DNA from: Wolbachia endosymbiont strain TRS of Brugia malayi
GTDB lineage: Bacteria; Pseudomonadota; Alphaproteobacteria; Rickettsiales; Anaplasmataceae
Reading direction: 5' to 3'
Length of the DNA stretch: 32,000 bases
NCBI RefSeq assembly: GCF_000008385.1
Contig: NC_006833.1
Coordinates: 570,001 to 602,000, forward strand
Within the stretch, counting starts at the first letter, position 1. Each line of letters begins with the position of its first letter. The translations under genes were made by a program, and so were the position numbers. The notes below the pieces were generated by a model. It made no database searches, was not told the origin of the DNA, and saw only the letters and a list, made by a program, of their open reading frames with translations. Shown here piece after piece: positions 6,048 through 32,000 of this stretch.

Positions 6048-6640
6048 TTAAACATTAGCTGTGATCCATTTTGAGCTGACAAAAATTTGCAGGTGGTAGC
6101 CCAGAGTTTTTAGTCCTTTTTCGGAGTCAAGGCATACTCTAAAAAAATCCCAATCGTTACAACTTTTACCAATAATTTCTTTGCCTACTATAGAAGGAGA
6201 GTTATATTTTGCTTTATTATAGATTAACTTGCCCTCACTGCTGACCGCAACTTCATATATTCTCCCTTTATATTTTCCAATAAGCGTTTTTCCTATAAAA
6301 AGATCTTGATAAATTTTTGATTTTGTGTTGAACTGTCATCAACTTGTGTAATTTTGTCAGGTTTATTCACTTTGAGTATAGCTAGTGGCTTATTACCCAA
6401 GATATTATTTAACACCTTGCATACTACATATGTCACAATCTCATTTTTGACTTCTTCTACCCTTTTATCTACATATTTTTCCACTTTACTGCACACTGCC
6501 CTTTAAAACTGTCAAGAAAGTTTTGCAAGTTGAGTAAAGTTAATTCAGATATTTCTATCAAATCCTCTAGTTCTATTGTTACCTCAATAATGAATCTAGT
6601 ATACTAAAACACTTTTAAGAAAAACGACCTAAAATTCCTG
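6048..6640 (-). pseudogene. DUF2924-like (phage/integrative-element associated) gene fragment
   Basis: Minus-strand frame ending at the TAA (plus-strand tta 6048-6050) reads IGKTLIGKYKGRIYEVAVSSEGKLIYNKAKYNSPSIVGKEIIGKSCNDWDFF. As I recall it, this fits the DUF2924 C-terminal pattern G-T-x-L-x-R-x-W-x-G-x-x-H-x-V-x-V...Y-x-S-L-S-x-x-A-x-x-I-T-G..W-x-FF. There is no start codon in that frame. The upstream parts (ORF 6293-6496 and IIEVTIELEDLIEISELTLLNLQNFLDSFKGQ) sit in other frames. Confidence 0.4.
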
Positions 6641-6830
6641 CCCTTTAGGCACAACTGTACAAACATTGTAATGACCTTGACCAAAAAAGTGATATCATTA
6701 CAATGCTTGATATACAATTGTACGAACATTTGTTTGCGAAGACAGTGTGTTAAATGTTATAGCAGATTTTACCCCAAACATAAGGATATTATGAAAACAC
6801 CTGATACTGACATGACATCTTTTTTGGACC

Positions 6831-7146
6831 CTTAAATTGAACTAGCTATAAACATTAAGAAATTTACTAAATAAAAAAAAGAAAAAGATGTCCCGTGGTA
6901 GATAGTGTTTACTCTCTAATCCTGCAAATTGGCATATTATACTGTCTTAAACGCTTTAAAAGCGAGTTTTAGCTTATATAGGTAAAAACCTAGAAATGTT
7001 GTGAAGACATAAGGTACATATAGTGCAAAAAATTAAACATAAGACATCAACTATGTAATACTTTGTTATTTAATCTGCACAGATTGAAGGTAATTGAATA
7101 CCTTTAGTACTATGGGGGCCGGCGAGGTTTGTCAAATAATTTTTGC
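6831..7146 (+). repeat. Copy A of a ~310-bp non-coding dispersed repeat (three copies in the window)
   Basis: Aligns by eye along its whole length with 20127-20432 (same orientation) and with the reverse complement of 29446-29761. Shared blocks include gtttactctctaatcctgcaaat, cagcttatataggtaaaaac and catttaatctgcacagaYtgaag. No ORF in any frame. Confidence 0.9.
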
Positions 7147-7276: not shown

Positions 7277-8599
7277 ATGTTAACGAGATTCGCCCCAAGC
7301 CCAACTGGCTATCTTCATGTGGGAAACGCCCGCACTGCACTCGTTTGCTGGATGTACACACGTAGTCAAAACGGGAAATTTTTACTTCGTTTCGACGACA
7401 CTGATCTTCAGCGTTCAGACGTTAAACATATAGATAGCATAGTGCAGGATTTGAGATGGATTTGCATAGATTGGGATGTAATTTTTAAGCAATCAGAGCG
7501 CTTTAAGCATTATAACGAAGTGTTTCTGCAGTTAATAACAAAAGGGCACATTTATGCATGCTATGAAACAAAAGAAGAATTAGACATTAAACGAAAATTG
7601 CAGTTAAAACATGGGCTTCCTCCGGTATATGATAGGAGTGCATTACTTCTCACTGAACAGGAAAAATTTTGTTATGAGCAAGAAGGACGAAAACCACATT
7701 TTAGATTTAAGTTGGATAGGAATGAAGTTGTCAAATGGAATGATGAGGTTAAAGGTGAAATAAATATTGCAACCAGCAGTATAAGCGACCCCGTGGTAAA
7801 AAGGGAGGATGGAATTTATACATACATGTTACCTTCTGTTATTGATGATGTCGACTTTAATGTAACCCATGTTATACGCGGAGAAGATCATGTAACTAAC
7901 ACTGCAGTTCAGATACAAATGATACAAGCATTAGAAGCAAAAGTTCCTGTGTTTGCTCATCTTCCCCTTCTACATTTTGATGATAGTAAAATATCGAAAC
8001 GGAAAGGTGGACTGGACATCAAATCCATTAAAGAAAATGAAATTGAACCAATGGCACTCGCTAGTTATTTAATAAAACTTGGAACATCCGATCCAATCGA
8101 AGCTTACGTTAACATGCAATCTTTAATTGACTCATTTGACATTAAAAAATTTGGCTCAGCTTCTGCACAATTTAATTTGAGTGAAATACATAAGCTAAAT
8201 AGTAAAGTCCTGCAACAAATGCCATTTGAAATGGTAAAAGAGCGTTTAAGTCAAATTGGAGTTAACTCTCCAGAGTTTTGGTACTTCATAAGGAACAATA
8301 TAGAAAAATTTTCGGAAGTGGCTGAGTGGTGGCAAATATGCAAATCTAATATAGAACCTGTGGTTCTTGATAAGGAGTTTATAAAAATCGTACTCGATGC
8401 ATTGCCTCAAGGTGATTGTAATGAAAACACATTGTCGGAGTGGGTGAAAGCTATTCAACAGACAGTGGATATAAAGTTGAAAGACTTGTTTATGCAGCTG
8501 CGTTTAGCCCTAACAGGTGCAAAAACAGGCCCAGAGCTTGCTAAGTTATTAATTTTTATTGGTAAAGAAAATATCATTGCAAGGTTAAAGAAGTATTAG
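7277..8599 (+). CDS. gltX: Glutamyl-tRNA synthetase, paralogue 1 (440 aa)
   Basis: [22 protein letters not shown] (HIGH-type motif), RFDDTD, VIRGEDH, KISKRKG (KMSKS-type motif). Confidence 0.9.
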
Positions 8600-8699: not shown

Positions 8700-9752
8700 G
8701 GTGAAAATTGTTTAAGGGATAACCAATAGCAAAAACTATAGAAAAAAATATACGAAATTTTTAAAGCAGCTAAAAGATCATATTACCACAAATCGTTATA
8801 AAGCAGCGCTTACAGCAAGCTCATTTACTTTATTATTATACTAGTATAGAAACTTTAAAGTGACAAAAAGAACATGGCTGGAAGCGAAAGTTTTGAATAA
8901 CTGAGTAAGAATTTGAAGGGTGCATTTCCAGAAATGAAGGATTTTAGTATGAGAAATCTGAAGTATATGCACAAATTTGCTGAAGAATATCTCGATGTTG
9001 AATTTGTGCAACAGGTTGCTTGTAGAATTGCCTTAGTTTCATACTGTGGTGATTATGGATAAGATTAAAGAGCCTTACAAGAGAGGCTTTTCTACTTTCA
9101 AAGAGCTATAGAGCATTGCTGATCACGCAATATTACAGTGAAGCAGATAGAGTGAGCGCTATATAAAAGGCAGGGAAAGGCTATTATTAACCTTAAAGAT
9201 AAGCTGTCATCTTTCCAATCAGACCTGGCACACTATACATTAAAAGATCTATATGTTTTTGATTTCTTAAGTATAGGAGATGATGCTCATGAGAGAGAAG
9301 TAGAAAAAGGGCTTGTAAAGCATGTTGAAAAGTTCCTACTAGAGCTGGGTAAAGGATTCGCGTTTGTTTGCAGACAAGTTTCACTTAGATGTTGGAGATA
9401 AAGACTTTTATATTGATTTATTATTTTACCACTTAAAGTTGTGTTGCTTTGTAGTAATTGAACTCAAAGATAAAGACTTTAAACCAGAATATGCTAGTAA
9501 AATGAATTTCTATCTTTCTGTAGTTGATGATTTACTAAAACATGCAACAGATTAATTTTCCATAGGATTAATTTTGTGTAAATCAGAGAATAGTGTGCTT
9601 GCTGAATATACACTTCGAGATATAACCAAACCAATATAGAGTTAGCAGAACATCGAATAACTGAAAATTTACCGAAAGACATAAAAACAGTTCTGCCAAC
9701 GATAGAAGAATTGGAAACCGAGTTATTAAAAATTCCAGATAAGAAAAAGTGA
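8700..9752 (+). pseudogene. DUF1016/YhcG-type PD-(D/E)XK nuclease domain protein, decayed
   Basis: Fragments in three frames: ..FPEMKDFSMRNLKYMHKFAEEY.., ..LKDLYVFDFLSIGDDAHEREVEKGLVKHVEKFLLELGKGFAFV.RQ.., ..DKDFYIDLLFYHLKLCCFVVIELKDKDFKPEYASKMNFYLSVVDDLL (ORF 9364-9555, nuclease core D..ELK), ..LPTIEELETELLKIP..*. The left boundary is approximate. Confidence 0.7.
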
Positions 9753-11535: not shown

Positions 11536-14500
11536 ATGAGTATAGATATAACTACACTAACTACTAATACAGATAAATTAGGTGAATGCACAGATAAAAA
11601 TGAAAAGCGAGAGCAGGATAGAAAGGACGAGCAATTGTATGGTGCTATGGAGAGAAAGGTAAAAAAAGAAGAGCATGAGCGTAAAAAACCAAGAGTTCGA
11701 GATGGAATCATCAAGAAGTGTACAAGGTTATTCAAAGAAGGCGCTAGCCCTGAAGTATTAACTACATTGGAAGAATCACTTAGAAAACAAGAAAAATATT
11801 ATAGGTATTATGTCCAGTGTTTCCTTCTGATATTGAATAGAAAAATACCAAAAGAATTAGACCCTATAAAAAAAGAGAGAATAGGACAAGTAATTTCTGA
11901 AATTACTTATAATAGCAAATATTATTTTAATAGTATTACCCACAACCAAAATGGCCATAGGAACAGCGAAGATAATGGAATTGGAAGTGATAGCAATCAT
12001 AAACGTCAAACTAATGACAAAGAGCCTAAGAATAGGGAAAAAATTCTTAATATATTTACAGATGAGAACATTAATGATCGTTTATTGGAAGCAGCAAAAC
12101 GAGACAATAAGAAAAAAATTAAGAAACTTGTACAAAAAGGCGCAGACATTAGCACAAAAGATGGTGACGATAACAACACTCTACACTACGTAGTTGCTTT
12201 ACAGCAAGGAAAGCAAAGAGTTGCATGTTTAAATCTAATATTAGGTTTAGTGAAAAAAGAAAAAATATCTCAAGATAAACTTAGTAAAGCTATAAACCTT
12301 AAAGAAGGACAAACACCCTTACAAAAATTGTTATCTAAAAAAATAACTAAGGGAGAGCATAGCTCTGAAAGAGTACTCGGAAAAATTGGAAAATTTCTAA
12401 AAAAGCCATTTACGCAATATGATGATCATACGATAGAGTCTGCTATAAGCTTGTTTAAGCTAGGAGCTAACGTCAATAATTTGCAGTTATCTAAAGAGGA
12501 ATTACAAAACTCAGATAAAAAGTACAGGAAGTATCATTTTAAACTCTTAGAAAAATTAGCAAAGTCAGTAGGGCGATCTACATTAGAGCAGAGAATCAAT
12601 ATAGAAAATAAAATTGAAGACATTACAGCGCGTATTATAAATACTCCAGATGCTAATGGTAATCATCTATTACATTCAATAATTGACAATTATGATAAAA
12701 ATTTTTTAAAAAAACTATTGCGAAAAGGGGCAGATATTAGCCTAAAAGATGCAAACGGAAATAATATTTTACACCTTGCTGCACTGCTAAAGAAAAAACA
12801 AAAACGCAGATCTTTAAATGCCCTAATAGAAGCAATTTCCAAGAAATATCTAGCACAACTTGTTGATAGTGAAAATCAGGATGAAAGAACTCCGCTTCAG
12901 GTGGCACTCATTGACAAAATAACAAAAGGGAAATATGGACCCCACACAATCCAAGATAATGATAACACACTTAAGTTTTTTGTTACATTATTAGAGCATG
13001 AGGTTAAACCAGATCAGTTAGAATTATCTCAAGAAGCGCTACAAAATTTAAATGAAAAGCAAAAGGTATATTATCTTAATTTCCTAGAAAAATTAGCAGA
13101 GTCAGTAAAGAAACCTGAGTTAGAACTAGAGATAAAAACAAAAATTAAAGAAATTATAGCGCGTATTATAAATACTCCAGATGGTAATGATAATTATCTA
13201 TTACATTCAGCAATTAAAAATAAAGATGAGAAACTTTTTAAGGAACTATTGCAAAAAGGGGCGGATATTAGCATTAAAGGTGCAAGTAACAACAATGCTT
13301 TACATCTAATAGTTATAGAATCAAAGAAAGAACAAAAGCTTGAATTTTTAAATATAGTATTAAATATAAGCGAGGAGAAAGGAAAAGAGCAACTTAAAGC
13401 ACAGTTTAAAAAAGCTGTAGACACTGAAAATACAGCAAAACAAACGCCACTTCATCAAGTACTTCAGCACATACAAGAAAAGAGTAAAAAATCTTCGCTG
13501 GGAAACAAAATACAAAATGTAGTTAAAAAAGAATTTAATGCTACTAATAGATATCAAACTCTAGCACTATTCCTACAAAATGGTGCTGATATTAGCAAAA
13601 GAGATGGTGAAGGAAACAATGCTTTGCACTATATTGTGTCATTTAAAGGCAAACAAAAAGTTGTATGTTTGGAGTTAATTTCAGATAAAGATGGATTTAG
13701 TAATGCTGTAAATACTCCTAACAAAGAAGGGCGAACACCTCTTCATCAATTGCTTCAGTATATAGAAAAAAAAAGTGAAAGCCAGTCGCTTACAGATAAG
13801 AAATTTGAAAAAACTAACAGGTATAAAATACTAGAGCTATTCCTACAAAATGGTGCTGATATTACTATTCAGGACAAAGAAGGAAATAATGCTCTGCACT
13901 ATATTATGTCATCAAAAGGCAAGCAAAAAGTTACATGTTTGGATCTAATATCAGGCAAAAGTGAATTAAGTGAGGCTGAGACAGACACCGACGATAAAGG
14001 TACGCTTATACAAGAAGCATTAAAGGGGAGAGCAATGAAAGAAAAATTTGAACACCTTTCTCAACATAAAAAAATTGTTTTCGGAAAGTCCGGTGGTGGC
14101 AACACAACAAAATTTTGTGCAATATTATTAAAAGAAGGTGCTAACCCTCATTCTTTATGGTTAGAAGATGAGAAATTTCATACTAAGAAGTACTATCTGG
14201 TTCTAAGAAATGCAAAGAATGATAAAACAATACCACAAAAAGCACGGGATAAAGCTAAAGAATTAAAAGAAAAGCTTGAAGCAAAATATGGTGTATGCAC
14301 CATTTCTAAATGGTTTAATTCTCAAAGTAGAGCTACTGCAGACCGATTAAAAACCACTATGAAAAAAATAGGACATACTTCCAAAGCTGTATGGAAGTGC
14401 GTTGATTCTGGCAGGAGAGCTAGTATATTGTTAGCAATTACAGTAGTAACTACCATTAGTATAATGGTAACATTTTCTTGCTTCCAAGGGCAAATTGTAA

Positions 14501-14862
14501 TCGGAGCAGCATTACCTATTATAGCTATTACTGGAATGGTCTGCCTAATATTCACTTTAGGGTTTAATGGTATTAAGAAGTCTACGAAAGAATTTACCAC
14601 TGATAAACAGGGTGTGCTTAAAAGTAAAGATGATCACCTAGCTGCAGAGCAAGGCAAAGCTCTCAAAAGCACTGTTCAACAGAACGTAGAAAATAAACAC
14701 AAAAATTCAGAGAAGGAAGAAATACAAGAGTCATCAGACCAATCAAAAGACACTGAAAGCCTTCCTAGTTCTAAAATATATGGTGTATCAATATTTCAAG
14801 TTATTAAGAGATTGTTAGGATTCAACGAGCAAATCAATAAACCCTCTTCTCTGGCGCGATGA
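11536..14862 (+). CDS. Large ankyrin-repeat protein (1108 aa) with a C-terminal two-helix membrane anchor and an acidic/serine-rich tail
   Basis: Many ANK-like units ([89 protein letters not shown]). Hydrophobic hairpin [46 protein letters not shown] near aa 970-1020. Internal duplications listed separately. Confidence 0.9.
12481..13500 (+). repeat. In-frame tandem duplication (period ~531-537 bp, about 177-179 aa) inside the ankyrin gene
   Basis: gcgcgtattataaatactccagatg occurs at 12628 and 13159 (offset 531). The protein modules [68 protein letters not shown] and [68 protein letters not shown] are collinear. Confidence 0.85.
13546..13975 (+). repeat. Second in-frame tandem duplication (period 270 bp, 90 aa) inside the ankyrin gene, with high nucleotide identity
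   Basis: ctagcactattcctacaaaatggtgctgatatt at 13561 versus ctagagctattcctacaaaatggtgctgatatt at 13831. Protein: [46 protein letters not shown] versus [46 protein letters not shown]. Confidence 0.9.
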
Positions 14863-18879: not shown

Positions 18880-20109
18880 ATGCTCACTTATATATACGAA
18901 TTAATTGATAAAAGCCAAGGATCAATATCCATCAGTGATTTCATGAATGCTGCTCTATACCATAAAGAATATGGCTATTACATGAATAAATTACCGCTTG
19001 GCAATGGTGGCGATTTTATCACAGCACCTGAAATTAGTCAATTGTTTGGTGAAATAATTGCAGTTTGGGTAATGCACACATGGAAAAAATTGGGAAAGCC
19101 ATCAAAATTTTCTCTAGTCGAACTTGGGCCAGGTAGAGGAACACTCATTCATGATATAATAAGAGTCACTAAAAAGTACGGTAGCTTTTTTAGTTCAATG
19201 GCCATTCACCTGGTTGAGATAAGTCCTACTTTGCAAAAAATACAAAAAGAAAAGTTAAAGGGTTTAGAAATCAGTTGGCACGAAAATATCGATAGTTTAC
19301 CAGAACAACCAACCATTTTTCTAGCAAATGAATTCTTCGATGCTCTTCCAATAGACCAGTTTGTATATCGTAATGGGAAGTGGCACGAAAATAGGGTGAC
19401 AAAGCAGAATGATGGGGCATCATCCCAGTGCCCCTTTCTTGTCACCCCATTGCTTAATACTAGAATCCAGAAAAAAGATCCAAGTAAACTGGCGTTGAAA
19501 TCCAGAAAAAAGAATGTTGTCACCTCACTGTCCCTTTCTTGTCATCCTAGTGCTCCTTCCTTTTTATCCCATTGCTTGACACTTGGATCCAGAAAAATTG
19601 ATCGTAAACAAGCACACTATTCAACATTTTCGATGAAATTACAAAAAAACTGGATTCCAGTGTCAAGCAATGGGATGACAGAGGGTTTTGATGGTGCAGT
19701 AGTGGAAGTATGTTCAGCTGGGATCGAAGTATTAAAAAAGCTTGAGGATAAGATAATGAATAACGGAGGAGCCGCTTTGATTATAGATTACGGCTATGTA
19801 TATCCTTCTCACAAGAGCACTTTGCAATCGGTAAGACAACATAAGTATGCTAATTTTCTTGAAAATGTCGGTAATAGTGATATTACCGCGCTTGTAAATT
19901 TTCAAGCGTTAAGAGACTCACTAAGATACGTAGACTGTGAGATTTCAACTCAAAGAGAATTTTTATATCTTTTTGGTATAAAAGAAAGAACCCAGGCTTT
20001 AATGGAAAATGCAAGTGATGAACAAAAGAATAGGATCTTTAGCGAATTTCTAAGGTTGACTGAAAACATGGGTACTCTTTTTAAAGCAATACTGATTCAT
20101 CATTCATAG
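18880..20109 (+). CDS. Class I SAM-dependent methyltransferase of the DUF185/COG1565 (MidA/NDUFAF7-like) family, carrying an in-frame repeat insertion
   Basis: N-terminal FMNAALYHKEYGYY...GDFITAPEISQLFGE, LVELGPGRGTL (SAM-binding GxGxG), ANEFFDALPIDQF, and C-terminal GGAALIIDYGY...SDITALVNFQAL. The central ~95 aa (..SSQCPFLVTPLLNTRIQ..SHCLTLGSRK..IPVSSNGMTEG) are encoded by the palindromic repeat. Confidence 0.85.
   Translation: MLTYIYELIDKSQGSISISDFMNAALYHKEYGYYMNKLPLGNGGDFITAPEISQLFGEIIAVWVMHTWKKLGKPSKFSLVELGPGRGTLIHDIIRVTKKYGSFFSSMAIHLVEISPTLQKIQKEKLKGLEISWHENIDSLPEQPTIFLANEFFDALPIDQFVYRNGKWHENRVTKQNDGASSQCPFLVTPLLNTRIQKKDPSKLALKSRKKNVVTSLSLSCHPSAPSFLSHCLTLGSRKIDRKQAHYSTFSMKLQKNWIPVSSNGMTEGFDGAVVEVCSAGIEVLKKLEDKIMNNGGAALIIDYGYVYPSHKSTLQSVRQHKYANFLENVGNSDITALVNFQALRDSLRYVDCEISTQREFLYLFGIKERTQALMENASDEQKNRIFSEFLRLTENMGTLFKAILIHHS
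19411..19685. repeat. Composite palindromic repeat (WPE/RPE-like) inserted in frame in the methyltransferase gene
   Basis: Three copies of a ~31-nt unit: tgtcaccccattgcttaatactagaatccag (19440-19470, direct), ttatcccattgcttgacacttggatccag (19564-19592, direct), and ctggattccagtgtcaagcaatgggatgaca (19650-19680, inverted). A second short direct repeat ccctttcttgtca occurs at about 19432 and 19522. Confidence 0.8.
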
Positions 20110-20126
20110 TATTGTGTTGCCTTTAC

Positions 20127-20432
20127 ACTAAACTGCTTTAGCTACAAATATTTAAGAAATTTACTAGACAGAAAAAAAGGTAAAAGAAACCCCATGATAG
20201 AGTTTACTCTCTAATCCTGCAAATCGGCGGTTTATATTGTCTTAAACGCTTTGTAATCACGTCTCAGCTTATATAGGTAAAAACTTTTAAAGACATACAA
20301 TGCACATAGTGCAAAAAAATTAAACATAAGACACTAACTATGTGACACTCCATCATTTAATCTGCACAGACTGAAGATAACTTAATACCATCAGTGCTAT
20401 GGTGGGTTGGCAAGGTTTGTTAAGTAATTTCT
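20127..20432 (+). repeat. Copy B of the ~310-bp non-coding dispersed repeat
   Basis: Collinear with copy A. It is the most diverged copy and is shorter in the middle (aaacttttaaagacatacaatgcacatagtgc versus aaacctagaaatgttgtgaagacataaggtacatatagtgc in A). It fills nearly all of the spacer between the convergent methyltransferase (stop 20109) and gltX (stop 20443) genes. Confidence 0.88.
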
Positions 20433-20442
20433 TTTATTTCAT

Positions 20443-21804
20443 TTAAACTGCCTGTAACCTCCTTATACATTCATCTTTACCAAGAATTATCATAATATCA
20501 ATGATTCCTGGTGCATCCATCACCCCAGTTATAGGGGCTCGTAATGAATGGTAAATATCGCTTATTTTAGCACTGTGCAACTTTGAAAACTCCTTGACCT
20601 GAGAAGACAAAAAGCCCTTATTCCAGTTTTTATCCCCGATATTCGAGAGAAATGACGCAAGCAACTTGATTATATCAAGGTTAGATTTGACAACTTGCTC
20701 AGCTTCTTCGCTCAAATCAAAAGGTGGGTCTTTTATATAAAACTGCGCTAAATCCAGCAACTCGGTCAGGTAATTTGCTCTTTTTTTTAGTTCCGTTAAC
20801 CCCTGTAATAAATAGTTCTTTTTCTTGTTAGTTAGAGTGCTTTCTCCAAGCATCAGGGTCAGAATATCTTCATTGCTCATATTATTAATATAATGGTTAT
20901 TCAAATGTTCCAATTTTTTAAAATTAAGCCGTGCGGGCGAACGACCAATGCTTTCTAAATTAAACCACTTTACTGCTTGCTCATTGCTAATAATCTCGTC
21001 ATTGCCGTGACTCCACCCAAGCCTCAGCAAGTAATTACGCATCGCTTTTGGCAATATCCCCATTTTTTCGTAGTCGCAAACACTTGTTGCACCGTGCCTT
21101 TTGGACAGCTTATTCCCATCTCTCCCGTGAATCAGCGGTACATGCGCAAAACGTGGAATATCAAAATCAAGAGCCTGGTATATCAGCACTTGCTTGAAGG
21201 TATTAGTGAGGTGGTCAGAACCACGTATTATATCAGTTATTCCTGCATCGTGATCGTCAACTACCACCGCAAAAATATATGTTGGAGTATTGTCAGAGCG
21301 TAAGATCACCATATCATCAAGTTGGTCACTATTCACTTTAATGTGACCGTATATTTTATCATCGACAATGATCTCCTGTGAATCTGGTACGTTAAAACGG
21401 ACAACTGGCTTTGCGTCTGGTATTACACTAGTACATTTGTGCTTATATATTTTCCTTTCCTCTCTCGCTTTTGCCTTCTTTTCTGCAACTTTATCTTCAG
21501 GGCAACAACAGCAATATGCCTTACCTTTCTCAACAAGAAGATTTGCAACTTCGATATGCCGTTCTATTCTTTTCGATTGATATACTATTTCTCCATCATA
21601 GCTCACACCAAGCCATTTTAGTCCATTTATTATCGCATCAATTGCTTCCTGTGTTGAACGTTTTCTGTCAGTGTCCTCAATCCTGAGCAAAAATCTGCCA
21701 CCATGGTGCTTTGCATAGAGCCAATTAAATAAGGCAGTACGAGCCCCACCAATGTGCAAAAACCCTGTTGGTGATGGAGCAAATCTGGTAACTATGTTTG
21801 GCAT
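20443..21804 (-). CDS. gltX: Glutamyl-tRNA synthetase, paralogue 2 (453 aa)
   Basis: [61 protein letters not shown]. Confidence 0.93.
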   Translation of the reverse strand: MPNIVTRFAPSPTGFLHIGGARTALFNWLYAKHHGGRFLLRIEDTDRKRSTQEAIDAIINGLKWLGVSYDGEIVYQSKRIERHIEVANLLVEKGKAYCCCCPEDKVAEKKAKAREERKIYKHKCTSVIPDAKPVVRFNVPDSQEIIVDDKIYGHIKVNSDQLDDMVILRSDNTPTYIFAVVVDDHDAGITDIIRGSDHLTNTFKQVLIYQALDFDIPRFAHVPLIHGRDGNKLSKRHGATSVCDYEKMGILPKAMRNYLLRLGWSHGNDEIISNEQAVKWFNLESIGRSPARLNFKKLEHLNNHYINNMSNEDILTLMLGESTLTNKKKNYLLQGLTELKKRANYLTELLDLAQFYIKDPPFDLSEEAEQVVKSNLDIIKLLASFLSNIGDKNWNKGFLSSQVKEFSKLHSAKISDIYHSLRAPITGVMDAPGIIDIMIILGKDECIRRLQAV

Positions 21805-28571: not shown

Positions 28572-29297
28572 TTACTTTACTGCATCCGATAAATATATAC
28601 ACGTTAATATAGTAAATATATAAGCTTGTAGAATTGCAACAAACACTTCAAATCCTATTAGTGCAATTATAAACAAAAACGGTATAGGGGTTAGAATCAA
28701 ATGCATATTCATAATAAACCCTGCTACTACTTTGATAATTGTATGACCCGCAATCATGTTTGCAGCAAGCCTTATTGATAAGCTTATAGGCCTTGCCAGG
28801 TAAGCAAATAGCTTAATAAAAACCATCATGGGTGCAAGCCATGATGGGATACCTTCCGGTAACAGTATGCGTAAAAAATTTATTCCCTTTTCTTTGAATC
28901 CAACAATTGTTGTATAAGTAAAAACTATCATTGATAGGGCAAAAGTAACTATCACATGACTTGTAACTGTAAAACTATAAGGAAGCATACCAACCAAATT
29001 ACACGACAAAGTAAAAGTAAATACTGTGAATACCAACGGAATGTGCTTTAGGCCTTTGCTTCCAGTATTACTTTCTATTATGGAAGTAATAAAATCATAT
29101 ACGTACTCAACCGCAGCTTGCAAATAGCCTGGTATTACTGCCCCTTTTCTTACCCCCAAGAGCAAGAAAAGTATAACCGATACTACTGAAATCATCATAA
29201 AAAGGGATGAGTTGGTAAAATTTATGTCATGCCCAAATAATTTAGGTAACTCTACTATTGTATGTATTTTAAACTGTTCTAGCGGATTTAACGCCAT
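28572..29297 (-). CDS. atpB: ATP synthase F0 subunit a
   Basis: 241 aa. Polytopic, with the conserved Arg segment [16 protein letters not shown]. Confidence 0.93.
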
Positions 29298-29445
29298 TTT
29301 TTGATCCTATAGACTTAGATTATAATAGTAAATAAAGTACTAATTTTATAGGATGAAGTCAAGAGTTAAGATAGTACAGGGCCATATAATACTAAACTTC
29401 TTGCAAACCATATAGTTTTTGCCTGGCCATCATTTAGGTAGCTCG

Positions 29446-29761
29446 AAAAACTACTTGACAAACCTCGCAGCCCCATAGCATTGAAGGTATTTAGTTACCT
29501 TCAATCTGTGCAGATTAAATGACAAAGTATTACGTAGTTGGCGTCTTATATTTAATTTTTTACACCATATGTACCTCATGTCTTCACAACTTTTCTAAAG
29601 TTTTTACCTATATAAGCTGAAATGCGCTTATAAAGCATTTAAGACAGTATAAAATGCCAATTTGCAGGATTAGAGAGTAAACACTATCTACCACTGGATA
29701 TCTTTTGCCTTTTTTCCCACTTAGTAAACTCCTTAAATATCTATAGCTAAAGCAATTTAAG
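29446..29761 (-). repeat. Copy C (inverted) of the ~310-bp non-coding dispersed repeat
   Basis: The reverse complement is collinear with copy A and is the closest pair by eye. It contains a perfect 10-bp stem attgaaggta (29480-29489) / taccttcaat (29496-29505). It lies about 150 bp upstream of the atpB start. Confidence 0.9.
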
Positions 29762-30279
29762 AGTAGCAGCGCTATAAAAAACGCCAATATTTAAAATAAT
29801 AACTATTTGTCTCTTTTTCTAGGTTATGTAAGAAGCCTGTTAGTGATTAGTAAAATGTATACTAGAGTGCTGATTGCAGTTGTGCTGTATTTTAAAATTT
29901 AATAACTTTACTAAATTATTAAATAACTTTACTTTACACGTTATCTTATTTATAATTTAATTTTTTAGTAAGATATATCATGAATAAAATAAATTTTATT
30001 AATATTAATCAATCTTTAAATTTAGAACAGGAATTTGACAATGGACACATCAAGCTAACGGATAGTTCCTCTAACGAATATATTGGCTATTCCAAAGTGG
30101 AAAGTAAAATACTAGTGAAAGCCATGACATAATAGAAAACTTAACTATTGATGGTTACATCTACAATTTCCATGAAGACAATCATAATATAAATCTTGAG
30201 TACTATATGGGTATAGATTTAAAAAGTGATATAAACAAAATTCCTTCTCTTTGAAAAGATACATAATCACATATGTAAA

Positions 30280-30308
30280 CTTCTCTATTGTTTCTTGCAA
30301 TAGAGAAG
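30280..30308. other. Perfect 11-bp inverted repeat (stem-loop) 72 bp upstream of pheT
   Basis: cttctctattg (30280-30290), 7-nt spacer tttcttg, caatagagaag (30298-30308). No clear U-tract follows on either strand, so its function (terminator or operator) is open. Confidence 0.4.
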
Positions 30309-30380
30309 TCATTTACTACAACAAACTTTAAAAGCATTATATTTTATATTACAATAACTTTTTTGTCTCTTTAAAGATTC

Positions 30381-32000
30381 ATGAGATTTACATTATCTTG
30401 GTTACTAGAGCACTTAGAAACGAATGCTAGTTTAGAAGAAATCACTGATAAGTTAACTCATATAGGGTTAGAAGTAAAAGATGTGGTTGACAATACCAAA
30501 TTAGCTGGATTCATTGTTGCAAAAGTGTTGGAAGTCACACCTCATCCAAATGTTGATAAGTTAAAGCTGTGTAAAGTAGATAATGGAAGTAAAATCTTAC
30601 AAATAGTCTGTGGGGCAAATAACGTTAGAGAAGGCTTGAAGACTGTACTTGCATCTCTTGGCAGCACATTGCCAGAAAGTAATTTCACAATTAAGCCCAC
30701 AAAAATACGAGGGGTGCTAAGTGAAGGAATACTCTGTTCCGCTTCTGAGCTTATGCTGGCTCAAGAGAAAAGTAAAGGAATAATTGAACTCTCTGATGAT
30801 TATAAAGTGGGGAATAAATTTTTCAATTGTGATCCTGTAATCGATATAAATGTCACCACAAATCGTGGAGATTGCCTGAGTGTACATGGAATAGCTCGAG
30901 ACTTGGCAGCAACTGGAATTGGAACATTAAATTCCTTAATTTATTCTAGCGCCATTCCAGCTCATGATACTGGAATCCAAGATAGATCCAAGTCTGGAAT
31001 GACAAGGAGCTCTTCTATAAATGTTAAGGTCATCGATGGTGAGAGCTTTATTAGTGGAGTATACATTTCCAATGTGAGAAATAAGGAGAGCCCAAGATGG
31101 TTAAAAGATAGGCTGGAATCAGTAGGAATGCGTTCCATTTCTGCAATAGTTGATATTACTAACTATATTATGATGTCCTTTGGTCGCCCGATGCATGCGT
31201 ATGATGCGAAAAAAATAGAAGGGAAACTCATAGTACGCAAAGCAAACAATGGAGAAAAATTTACTGGTTTAAATGGTAAAGAGTACTTATTAAATAATGA
31301 TATAAGCGTTATTTCTGATAATAATAATATTCACGCAATTGCTGGAATTATAGGCGGTAAGTGCAGTAAATGTACACTTGAAACTACTGATGTCTTTTTA
31401 GAATCTGCTTGGTTTAATCCTATCTCTGTTACTAAATCTTCAAGGCAACTCAATATTTCCACAGACTCAAGTTACAGATTTGCACGTTCAGTTGATCCTG
31501 GATTTATTCTTGATGGGCTCCATTTTGCAGCTCAGATGATTGTTGATTTGTGTGGTGGAAAAGCCTCAAACGTAGTGTTTGCTGGCAGTTTGGATGAGGC
31601 TGATACCAAGGTGAGTTTTGATTATCAAGATGTAAACAAGTTTGGAAGTGTGTCTGTATTGCCTGACGAGATGTTTGATATCTTAACAAAATTAGGATTT
31701 AGCACTGATAAAAAAACTGAGAATAATTGGAATGTAAAAGTACCAAGCTGGAGATCGGATGTTACCATACCTGCTGACCTAGTTGAAGAGGTAGTAAGAA
31801 TATATGGATATGATAAAATAAAAGAGGAACCACTAATAGACAACGTTGAGGTAGAAATTAATACACACGATAACTTGCGTGTTTTGATGATAAGCAGAGG
31901 ATTTCATGAAGTGTTCACTTGGTCATTTATGAGTGAATCGATAGCTGAAAAATTTGGCTACTCAAATAAGTTATTTATCATCGACAATCCATTTAATAAT
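30381..32000 (+). CDS. pheT: Phenylalanyl-tRNA synthetase beta subunit (5' 540 codons; continues beyond the window)
   Basis: I translated this by hand from the ATG at 30381 and found no stop to the end of the window. [12 protein letters not shown]..., tRNA-binding domain [48 protein letters not shown]3/4 domain [40 protein letters not shown]5 region [24 protein letters not shown]. It is absent from the ORF track because the frame is open-ended. Confidence 0.93.

Follow-up and report, generated by a model that had tools for sequence, protein, structure and literature searches.

Three intergenic repeats in the Wolbachia of Brugia malayi as probable eroded relics of a promoter-bearing, transcribed Wolbachia repeat

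The Correia elements of Neisseria and the BOX elements of pneumococci are short, non-coding, dispersed repeats of modular build that form hairpins, can carry promoters and can be co-transcribed with their neighbours. In Wolbachia strain wMel, class 11 of a RepeatFinder catalogue (89 pieces at ~30 loci) was listed, unnamed, as the most abundant repeat (Wu 2004, PMC368164, Table S1). In the same strain, intergenic regions (IGs) with RNA-seq signal were chosen for 5′ rapid amplification of cDNA ends (RACE; Woolfit 2015, PMC4349823); IG-1021 was co-transcribed with a downstream coding sequence, neither IG-1021 nor IG-1047 was accepted by the authors as a discrete small RNA (sRNA), and these two were not recognised as one family with IG-446 and IG-1049. 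Furthermore, sr2WO prophages integrate into VNTR-105, a locus of the variable-number tandem repeat (VNTR) type, in supergroup A Wolbachia (Bordenstein 2022, PMC9203015; VNTR-105: Riegler 2012, PMC3287509). Here we analyse a repeat of about 310 bp that occurs in three copies (A, B and C) in a 32-kb window of wBm, the supergroup D Wolbachia of Brugia malayi (NC_006833.1, positions 570,001 to 602,000); the window is the whole stretch of DNA analysed, and all wBm copy counts refer to it. A first-pass annotation made from the sequence alone had read the repeat as a structured RNA or a transcribed element resembling a miniature inverted-repeat transposable element (MITE), and the orientation in which it read the repeat is called ‘plus' below.

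With a probability of about 0.6, the wBm repeats are eroded relics of a promoter-bearing, MITE-like, transcribed Wolbachia repeat and not a new structured RNA. Under this proposal, an ancient short intergenic repeat, Wolbachia-wide and of one family with the most abundant wMel repeat, would have, at one end of its intact members, an inward-pointing sigma-70 promoter made up of an A-rich stretch, TTGACA, 17 nt and TATCAT. Transcription would start ~7 nt past the -10 box, exactly at a hairpin singled out by the first-pass annotation, and would cross the whole unit on the opposite strand, to yield a non-coding transcript, 290 nt or longer, that can run into neighbouring DNA, whereas multiplication and movement would take place at the DNA level in the manner of a MITE. 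The wBm copies would have occupied three fixed sites since before the split of the Brugia and Litomosoides Wolbachia, and would have been partly homogenised, lost the -10 box and evolved at least as fast as neutral intergenic DNA.

A repeat family with a mapped strand and 5′ end in wMel

The copies were placed by repeat finding and MAFFT alignment, and the limits of their similarity were determined by pairwise BLASTN of 1.3-kb regions, which recovered three discrete, dispersed copies essentially where they had first been reported (Table 1). Each pair of copies gave one strong high-scoring segment pair limited to about 315-321 bp (86% identity and E 1e-105 for A-C; 77% and E 6e-65 for A-B; 78% and E 4e-68 for B-C), while the flanks in these regions showed no significant BLASTN similarity, only noise. 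A likeness of A and B extending past the right end into gltX2 was rejected, as it was not significant by BLASTN. All three copies are intergenic and contain from 5 to 11 stop codons in each of the six frames, in agreement with the initial view that none has an open reading frame (ORF); a conserved small ORF on the transcribed strand was also considered and rejected, as its start codon is gone in copy C and its frame is shifted in copy B.

The element, which had not been recognised in the first pass, has transcribed relatives in wMel. The published RACE inserts of IG-1021 and IG-1047 (PMC4349823, Table C) matched the hidden Markov model (HMM) of the family with 155.6 and 135.6 bits, respectively, the latter aligning to HMM positions 5-276, and both RNAs are of the strand opposite to plus. 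The RACE adaptor junction lies at HMM 276-277, which is the first base of the hairpin noted initially and, by alignment to the copies that keep the promoter, ~7 nt past the -10 hexamer; the equivalent positions in wBm are ~7105 (copy A), ~20392 (copy B) and ~29483 (copy C). The IG-1047 product covers the whole unit and passes through its U-run. The primers of IG-446 and IG-1049 (PMC4349823) also lie in family members, in the other sense, and gave no RACE product; products were thus obtained only with primers complementary to the opposite strand, contrary to the plus-strand RNA that had been proposed. The literature on wBm non-coding RNAs and the Cappable-seq study of wMelPop contained nothing on these loci, multi-mapping reads having been removed in the latter.

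IG-1047 (1,216,366-1,216,864; RACE insert from ~1,216,539) falls within class 11 coordinates 1,216,516-1,217,060 (C11R78-83). As judged from published coordinates plus this one sequence, the wBm repeats are homologous to wMel class 11, the unnamed repeat catalogued in 2004. Class 11 is probably the ‘repeat family 8' of that paper, with 45 copies and hallmarks of a mobile element.

A scan of species-representative genomes anchored on the GltX2 protein gave 14 Wolbachia loci; an exact 22-mer scan of the same collection, in which wBm and its close relatives are not included, had no hit. The nhmmer profile was built first from the three wBm copies and then from 14 full-length relatives. Homologues were found in supergroups D, F, B, J and A, with nhmmer matches in wLbra, wLsig, loci L007-L011 and L015, and the flank of prophage WOVitA1. 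A unit directly follows the gltX2 stop, as copy B does, in wLbra (L006), wLsig (L017), L007, L008, L009, L011 and L012. Copy A has positional orthologues upstream of gltX1 in wBp (L119, 9555-9868) and wLsig (L118, 9558-9862), and those of copy C, in wLbra (L006, 2167-2477) and wLsig (L017, 2306-2578), are at the same 145-147 bp from atpB. Extra copies were seen at other places in L009, L010 (supergroup B), L011 and L015 (supergroup J), and a copy upstream of sdhA in L097 only. At the copy C site, eight loci of other lineages (L019, L010, L007-L009, L011, L012 and L015, including wCon of supergroup B and wDcau of supergroup J) have no repeat, and among the loci compared the site is filled in supergroup D only, which is most simply explained by a gain of copy C in the ancestor of supergroup D.

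The units measure ~320 bp, at times with additional tandem copies of the left ~130 bp. Such left-module fragments (HMM 1-147), in tandem beside full copies, were detected by nhmmer only, as Tandem Repeats Finder returned nothing on them. Moreover, a 20-mer scan of metagenomes gave 30 loci, mostly from sample Ga0209755, with the repeat sitting at contig ends; the Ga0209755 contigs that carry it are Wolbachia and show at least 24 distinct right ends or flanks. Since the assemblies break at the repeat with at least 24 different right flanks, this genome would hold many near-identical copies.

Partial and variant units were encountered as well. Right after the gltX2 stop of wCon (L010, 11350-11420; supergroup B), only the promoter end is left (TTGACA-17-TATAGT), followed by unrelated sequence, and at the same place in L019 there is a solo right-end fragment in inverted orientation. 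A subfamily (L116, 473-488; L098, L109 and L113) has a ~20-nt insertion ~120 nt past the RNA start, which makes a perfect hairpin with a U-run behind it (ACCUAGACUUCUAGGU UUUUG); the 3′ arm of this hairpin can instead pair with a downstream (A/G)CCUA, a layout resembling that of a terminator and anti-terminator.

A promoter signature in relatives and its erosion in wBm

On the strand opposite to plus, the consensus of the right end consists of an A-rich stretch, CTACTTGACAA, 17 nt, TATCAT and then AGTAYTGAAGCTATT. Among 43 distinct right ends, TTGACA was found in 32, a 17-nt spacer in 36, TATCAT in 22 and TATTAT in five, while the 17-nt spacers are mutually only 58% identical. Constant hexamers and constant spacing around a freely varying spacer look like a working sigma-70 promoter, and TTGACA-17-TATCAT scored 11/12 in L116 and L008 in a promoter scan. 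Both hexamers and the spacing of 17 nt are strictly conserved, which tells against the promoter being incidental. Upstream on the plus strand, no conserved promoter was found. The first-pass annotation had offered, as a second option, a promoter at the opposite-strand TTGACA with the A/T run as the far end, and this is the arrangement favoured by the promoter signature and by the strand of the wMel RACE products.

In wBm, the opposite-strand TTGACA of copies A and C and the TTAACA of copy B are as first described (Table 1). However, whereas most copies in the relatives have a promoter of their own upstream of the mapped 5′ end, the three wBm copies do not: the segment ATGATA (TATCAT on the transcribed strand) is gone from all of them, leaving TTGACA-15-TAGCAT or worse, copy A being without a TATCAT -10 box through a deletion of 5-8 nt, and the promoter scan of A, B and C passed no site in any. 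At the 3′ end, only weak terminator-like sites were seen in the copies and relatives scanned, among them a site in L008, equivalent to the A-run of copy A, with a terminator-like score. A role of the repeat as a promoter, in plus orientation, of the downstream gene was rejected for atpB, as the conserved promoter region of atpB is the ~80 nt next to the gene, lies outside the repeat and is present in lineages without it.

All three copies are at sites shared with the Litomosoides Wolbachia. The units of wBm and of wLbra or wLsig are 74-78% identical, with many insertions and deletions, while in the same syntenic block eight other intergenic segments are 79-95% and genes 87-93% identical. The wBm copies are 79-87% identical to one another, closer than to their own positional orthologues, and have the spacer deletion in common, which suggests gene conversion among the copies in the Brugia lineage; thus they appear partly homogenised among themselves. 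Nothing measured requires residual function in the wBm copies, and they have most likely lost it; the family was probably mobile.

Copy A is located 131 bp upstream of, and divergent from, gltX1 (7277-8599); the GltX1 protein is identical to one encoded by CP034333.1 and by several Brugia-associated assemblies, and is 99% identical to that of the Wolbachia of Brugia pahangi and 90% to that of the Wolbachia of Litomosoides sigmodontis. The intergenic zone around copy A gathers mobile-element debris, with short ORFs at 6048-6496 and 9273-9555 that have weak matches to DUF2924/RAMA (remnants of phage-type recombinases) and YhcG_C, and with a DDE_3 transposase fragment in the equivalent region of wLsig. 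Copy B has the same direction as gltX2 (20443-21804, minus strand) and begins 9 bp past the stop of that gene, the far end of the copy being 16 bp from the stop of a convergent methyltransferase ORF (Methyltransf_28; 18880-20109). The two glutamate--tRNA ligase paralogues of the window are thus each beside a repeat, one downstream of it and the other upstream, and the flanks show no similarity suggesting a segmental duplication around the two genes. The 409-aa methyltransferase ORF contains the sole Rfam match of the window, to WsnRNA46 (91 bits; 19564-19678), which coincides with a weak match to the WPE palindromic-element domain (aa 255-267); the sRNA family of Rfam may therefore represent a WPE inserted into coding DNA.

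Between copy C and atpB (28572-29297, minus strand) there are 147 bp, the repeat again being upstream of the gene and divergent from it. Just past copy C, 29764-30277 is the worst-aligning part of the syntenic block (58% identity and over 600 gap columns when aligned to wLbra and wLsig), of which ~29850-30100 is still recognisable in the supergroup A/B-like loci L007, L010 and L019. The following ~1.1 kb (30278-31415) matches nothing in Pfam or Rfam and has no ORF of at least 60 aa, fragments of 25-58 aa being strung along the minus strand. Its identity to wLbra and wLsig, in which it is just as broken, is nevertheless 90%, and it is an old pseudogene common to these genomes or else a non-coding stretch that has been conserved. 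Elsewhere in the window, a gene for a 1108-aa ankyrin-repeat protein (11536-14862) has internal direct repeats (12601-12776 with 13132-13307, and 13532-13594 with 13802-13864) of 80-81% identity.

Table 1. Repeat copies and their features in the 32-kb wBm window (window coordinates)
Feature	Position	Strand	Basis or detail
Copy A	6829..7146	+ in first-pass orientation; - as homologous wMel transcript	nhmmer, E 4e-82
Copy B	20125..20434	+ in first-pass orientation; - as homologous wMel transcript	repeat finding, alignment
Copy C	29444..29763	- in first-pass orientation; + (rightward) as homologous transcript	repeat finding, alignment
Copy A, -35 hexamer TTGACA	7130..7135	-	read 7135-7130; best fit TTGACA-15-CATAGT
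Copy B, -35 remnant TTAACA	20418..20423	-	read 20423-20418; no acceptable -10 box after it
Copy C, -35 hexamer TTGACA	29455..29460	+	nearest -10-like hexamer TAGCAT, 15-nt spacing
Copy A, hairpin region	7069..7108	-	arms 7083-7092 and 7099-7108, plus adjacent palindrome AATCTGCACAGATT
Copy B, hairpin region	20356..20395	-	arms 20370-20379 and 20386-20395
Copy C, hairpin region	29480..29519	+	perfect stem 29480-29489/29496-29505, plus adjacent palindrome
Copy A, A-run (U-run near the 3′ part of the homologous transcript)	6873..6886	-	read from sequence; possible weak termination signal
Possible second, truncated left module beside copy C	29761..29790	+ (TTGGCGTTTTTTATAGCGCTGCTACTC on minus strand)	suggested by alignment and nhmmer fragments

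Competing explanations

Several observations weigh against the wBm copies being relics of a promoter-driven, mobile unit. As far as its published description goes, the RACE does not separate primary from processed 5′ ends, and in copies of the IG-1047/WOVitA1 subtype what precedes the 5′ end is the terminal part of a recombinase gene instead of a TTGACA promoter. Inverted terminal repeats, a target duplication (at the one empty site examined) and a partner transposase (in phage and plasmid collections) were not found, and mobility is read from presence or absence and copy number alone. Copies A and C retain a perfect TTGACA and might still fire weakly. Moreover, all three copies are full length in wBm, wBp, wLbra and wLsig though these genomes are shrinking, which could mean that they were retained for a reason. 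Finally, the assignment to class 11 comes from coordinates plus one sequence and not from an alignment to the wMel genome.

The subtype just mentioned is associated with prophage (the WOVitA1 flank, an IMG/VR contig and wMel IG-1047; L087, 7433-7734; L086, 13-142), and has, where the TTGACA end would be, the 3′ end of a serine-recombinase gene. The 5′ end of the wMel RNA is at an unchanged position despite the replaced promoter end, and may in this subtype be a processing site, or another promoter may drive it.

It is possible, yet unlikely in our estimate, that the copies are functional multi-copy sRNA genes still active in wBm, transcribed from the opposite strand by weakened promoters or by read-through (for copy B, which is directly downstream of gltX2 in the same direction, from that gene). 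Such a role would fit the defined 5′ ends of the transcribed wMel homologues, the near-identical transcribed interior of intact copies that differ in their promoter spacers, and the full-length persistence of the three wBm copies at syntenic sites across supergroup D. Local hairpins persist too, namely, on the RNA strand, SL1 (the hairpin of the first pass), SL2 (AAUCUGUGCAGAUU), SL3 (UGCACUAUGUGCA) and an AAAC/GUUU helix, with scattered compensatory changes such as GCGUUU/AAACGC to GCAUUU/AAAUGC in copy C. However, the orthologues diverge more than other intergenic DNA does, none of the three copies has kept the -10 box, and IG-1021 was not taken for a discrete sRNA by those who mapped it (PMC4349823).

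Tests for RNA structure also weigh against active sRNA genes. In 23 diverse copies aligned by MAFFT and compared with 500 column shuffles, a test of limited power, paired cells amounted to 89.4% versus 88.5% in shuffles, the covariation score (0.167 versus 0.162) was reached by 142 of the 500 shuffles, and pairs with double changes numbered four against 4.1 expected. For whole units, 5′ halves and 3′ halves on both strands, the RNAalifold consensus held no pairs on plus and four on the other strand, with none in the 3′ half and an energy of about 0, and the z-scores of minimum free energy were -0.11 and -0.13 for copy A and -0.69 and -1.40 for an intact copy. The proposal of a hairpin kept by compensatory change was therefore not upheld, covariation being no higher than in shuffles can be expected by chance; as for the more general alternative of a structured RNA or a transcribed MITE-like element, the relatives are indeed transcribed, while structural support is absent.

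A more ambitious version extends to the whole family: a self-promoted regulatory RNA gene in tens of copies per Wolbachia lineage, with 5′ stem-loops and modular 3′ repeats that would act on host or bacterial targets, serving as the landing pad of sr2WO and the seed of VNTR loci, with the wBm copies as weakly expressed survivors. We regard this as speculative and rather improbable.

A conventional MITE, that is, an internally deleted derivative of an insertion sequence (IS) mobilised by a transposase from elsewhere, with a promoter and hairpins that are incidental, would account for the many near-identical copies in one Wolbachia metagenome, for the ~30 loci and 89 pieces in wMel, to which hallmarks of mobile elements are ascribed in PMC368164, and for the discrete boundaries. 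Presence or absence at orthologous sites in different lineages together with high copy number, as expected of a MITE, was indeed observed. By eye, a weak inverted match (11/17) links AAGAAATTTACT, which is close to the left end, with AAAAACTACT at the right. However, no terminal inverted repeats join the two true ends in any of the three copies, as the first pass had already noted, and the single empty site that was compared (upstream of atpB, L019 and L010 versus wBm) has flanks too diverged for a target-site duplication to be recognised. Nor was a transposase-bearing relative found in phage or plasmid collections, where BLAST returned the WOVitA1 flank only and a supergroup-B-type query found nothing. 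The strict conservation of hexamers and 17-nt spacing speaks against an incidental promoter, and this explanation is thus quite improbable.

For a structured RNA of plus orientation with a hairpin kept by compensatory and wobble changes, there is very little room. The perfect 10-bp stem of copy C is as described, and so is the t:a to c:g double change of copy B; the latter stem also contains mismatches that had gone unmentioned (A.A and A.C on the plus strand), one of which becomes G.U on the opposite strand. The two differences of copy A from copy C are G.U and U.G on plus only, a pattern also shown by some other copies such as L116, so that the wobble argument stands for copy A, whereas the mismatches of copy B favour the other strand. 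Across the family, one-sided changes in SL1, SL2 and P1 count 47 G.U versus 13 A.C on the transcribed strand, and P2 plus SL3 reverse this trend slightly in favour of plus (21 A.C versus 13 G.U). The wobble counts support the opposite strand and do not demonstrate selection on structure. In addition, there is no covariation signal, a conserved promoter is missing upstream on plus, and RACE in wMel worked for the opposite strand only.

Least credible is a fragment of a known IS, group II intron or prophage gene: although remnants of transposases and recombinases are present near copy A in both wBm and wLsig, and HMM 166-288 is matched (E 4e-12) at the end of the sr2WO-type prophage WOVitA1 (positions 13-142), overlapping the last codons of its serine recombinase, this overlap is better explained by integration of sr2WO into a repeat copy at VNTR-105, the boundaries are discrete and the same in unrelated contexts, every frame is broken by 5-11 stops, and Rfam, searched at gathering thresholds and then at E up to 10, gave no credible match on the repeat and no group II intron.

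Comparison with described systems

The likeness to Correia and BOX elements entails no sequence relationship, and the wBm family differs from them in that no inverted terminal repeats or target duplications were found. The transcripts ncrwmel02 and WsnRNA-46 (RF02625) are likewise non-coding and from Wolbachia, but are unrelated in sequence; ncrwmel02 had been tried as a known relative and was rejected on its amplicon sequence.

The VNTR-105 locus (IG-921; wMel 1,080,340-1,081,546) contains, by coordinates, class 11 pieces. Its tandem build may be akin to the left-module duplications that accompany full copies elsewhere in Wolbachia, which the possible remnant at 29761..29790 beside copy C also resembles, whereas the wBm copies have neither a tandem array nor a prophage. 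VNTR-105, used in typing, and the site at which sr2WO integrates are probably facets of the same transcribed unit.

For the window itself, the result is mainly corrective, in that the repeats belong, as old and eroded members, to a family that had already been catalogued in wMel. On a wider scale, the most abundant wMel repeat and several ‘candidate sRNA' regions appear to reflect a single kind of transcribed unit, which bears a promoter and whose strand and start site are defined, a view that can be of use in annotating intergenic DNA and in avoiding repeat-driven artefacts in Wolbachia genomes, including those of the filarial-parasite Wolbachia that are drug targets. IG-1021 and IG-1047 of Woolfit 2015, and by primer match IG-446 and IG-1049, are of the same sequence family as the wBm repeats. 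Class 11, which as catalogued (PMC368164) has no name, strand, promoter or transcript, shares with them a non-coding, multi-copy and intergenic character, but it occupies ~30 loci in wMel, as against three diverged, promoter-eroded copies in the 32-kb window of wBm.

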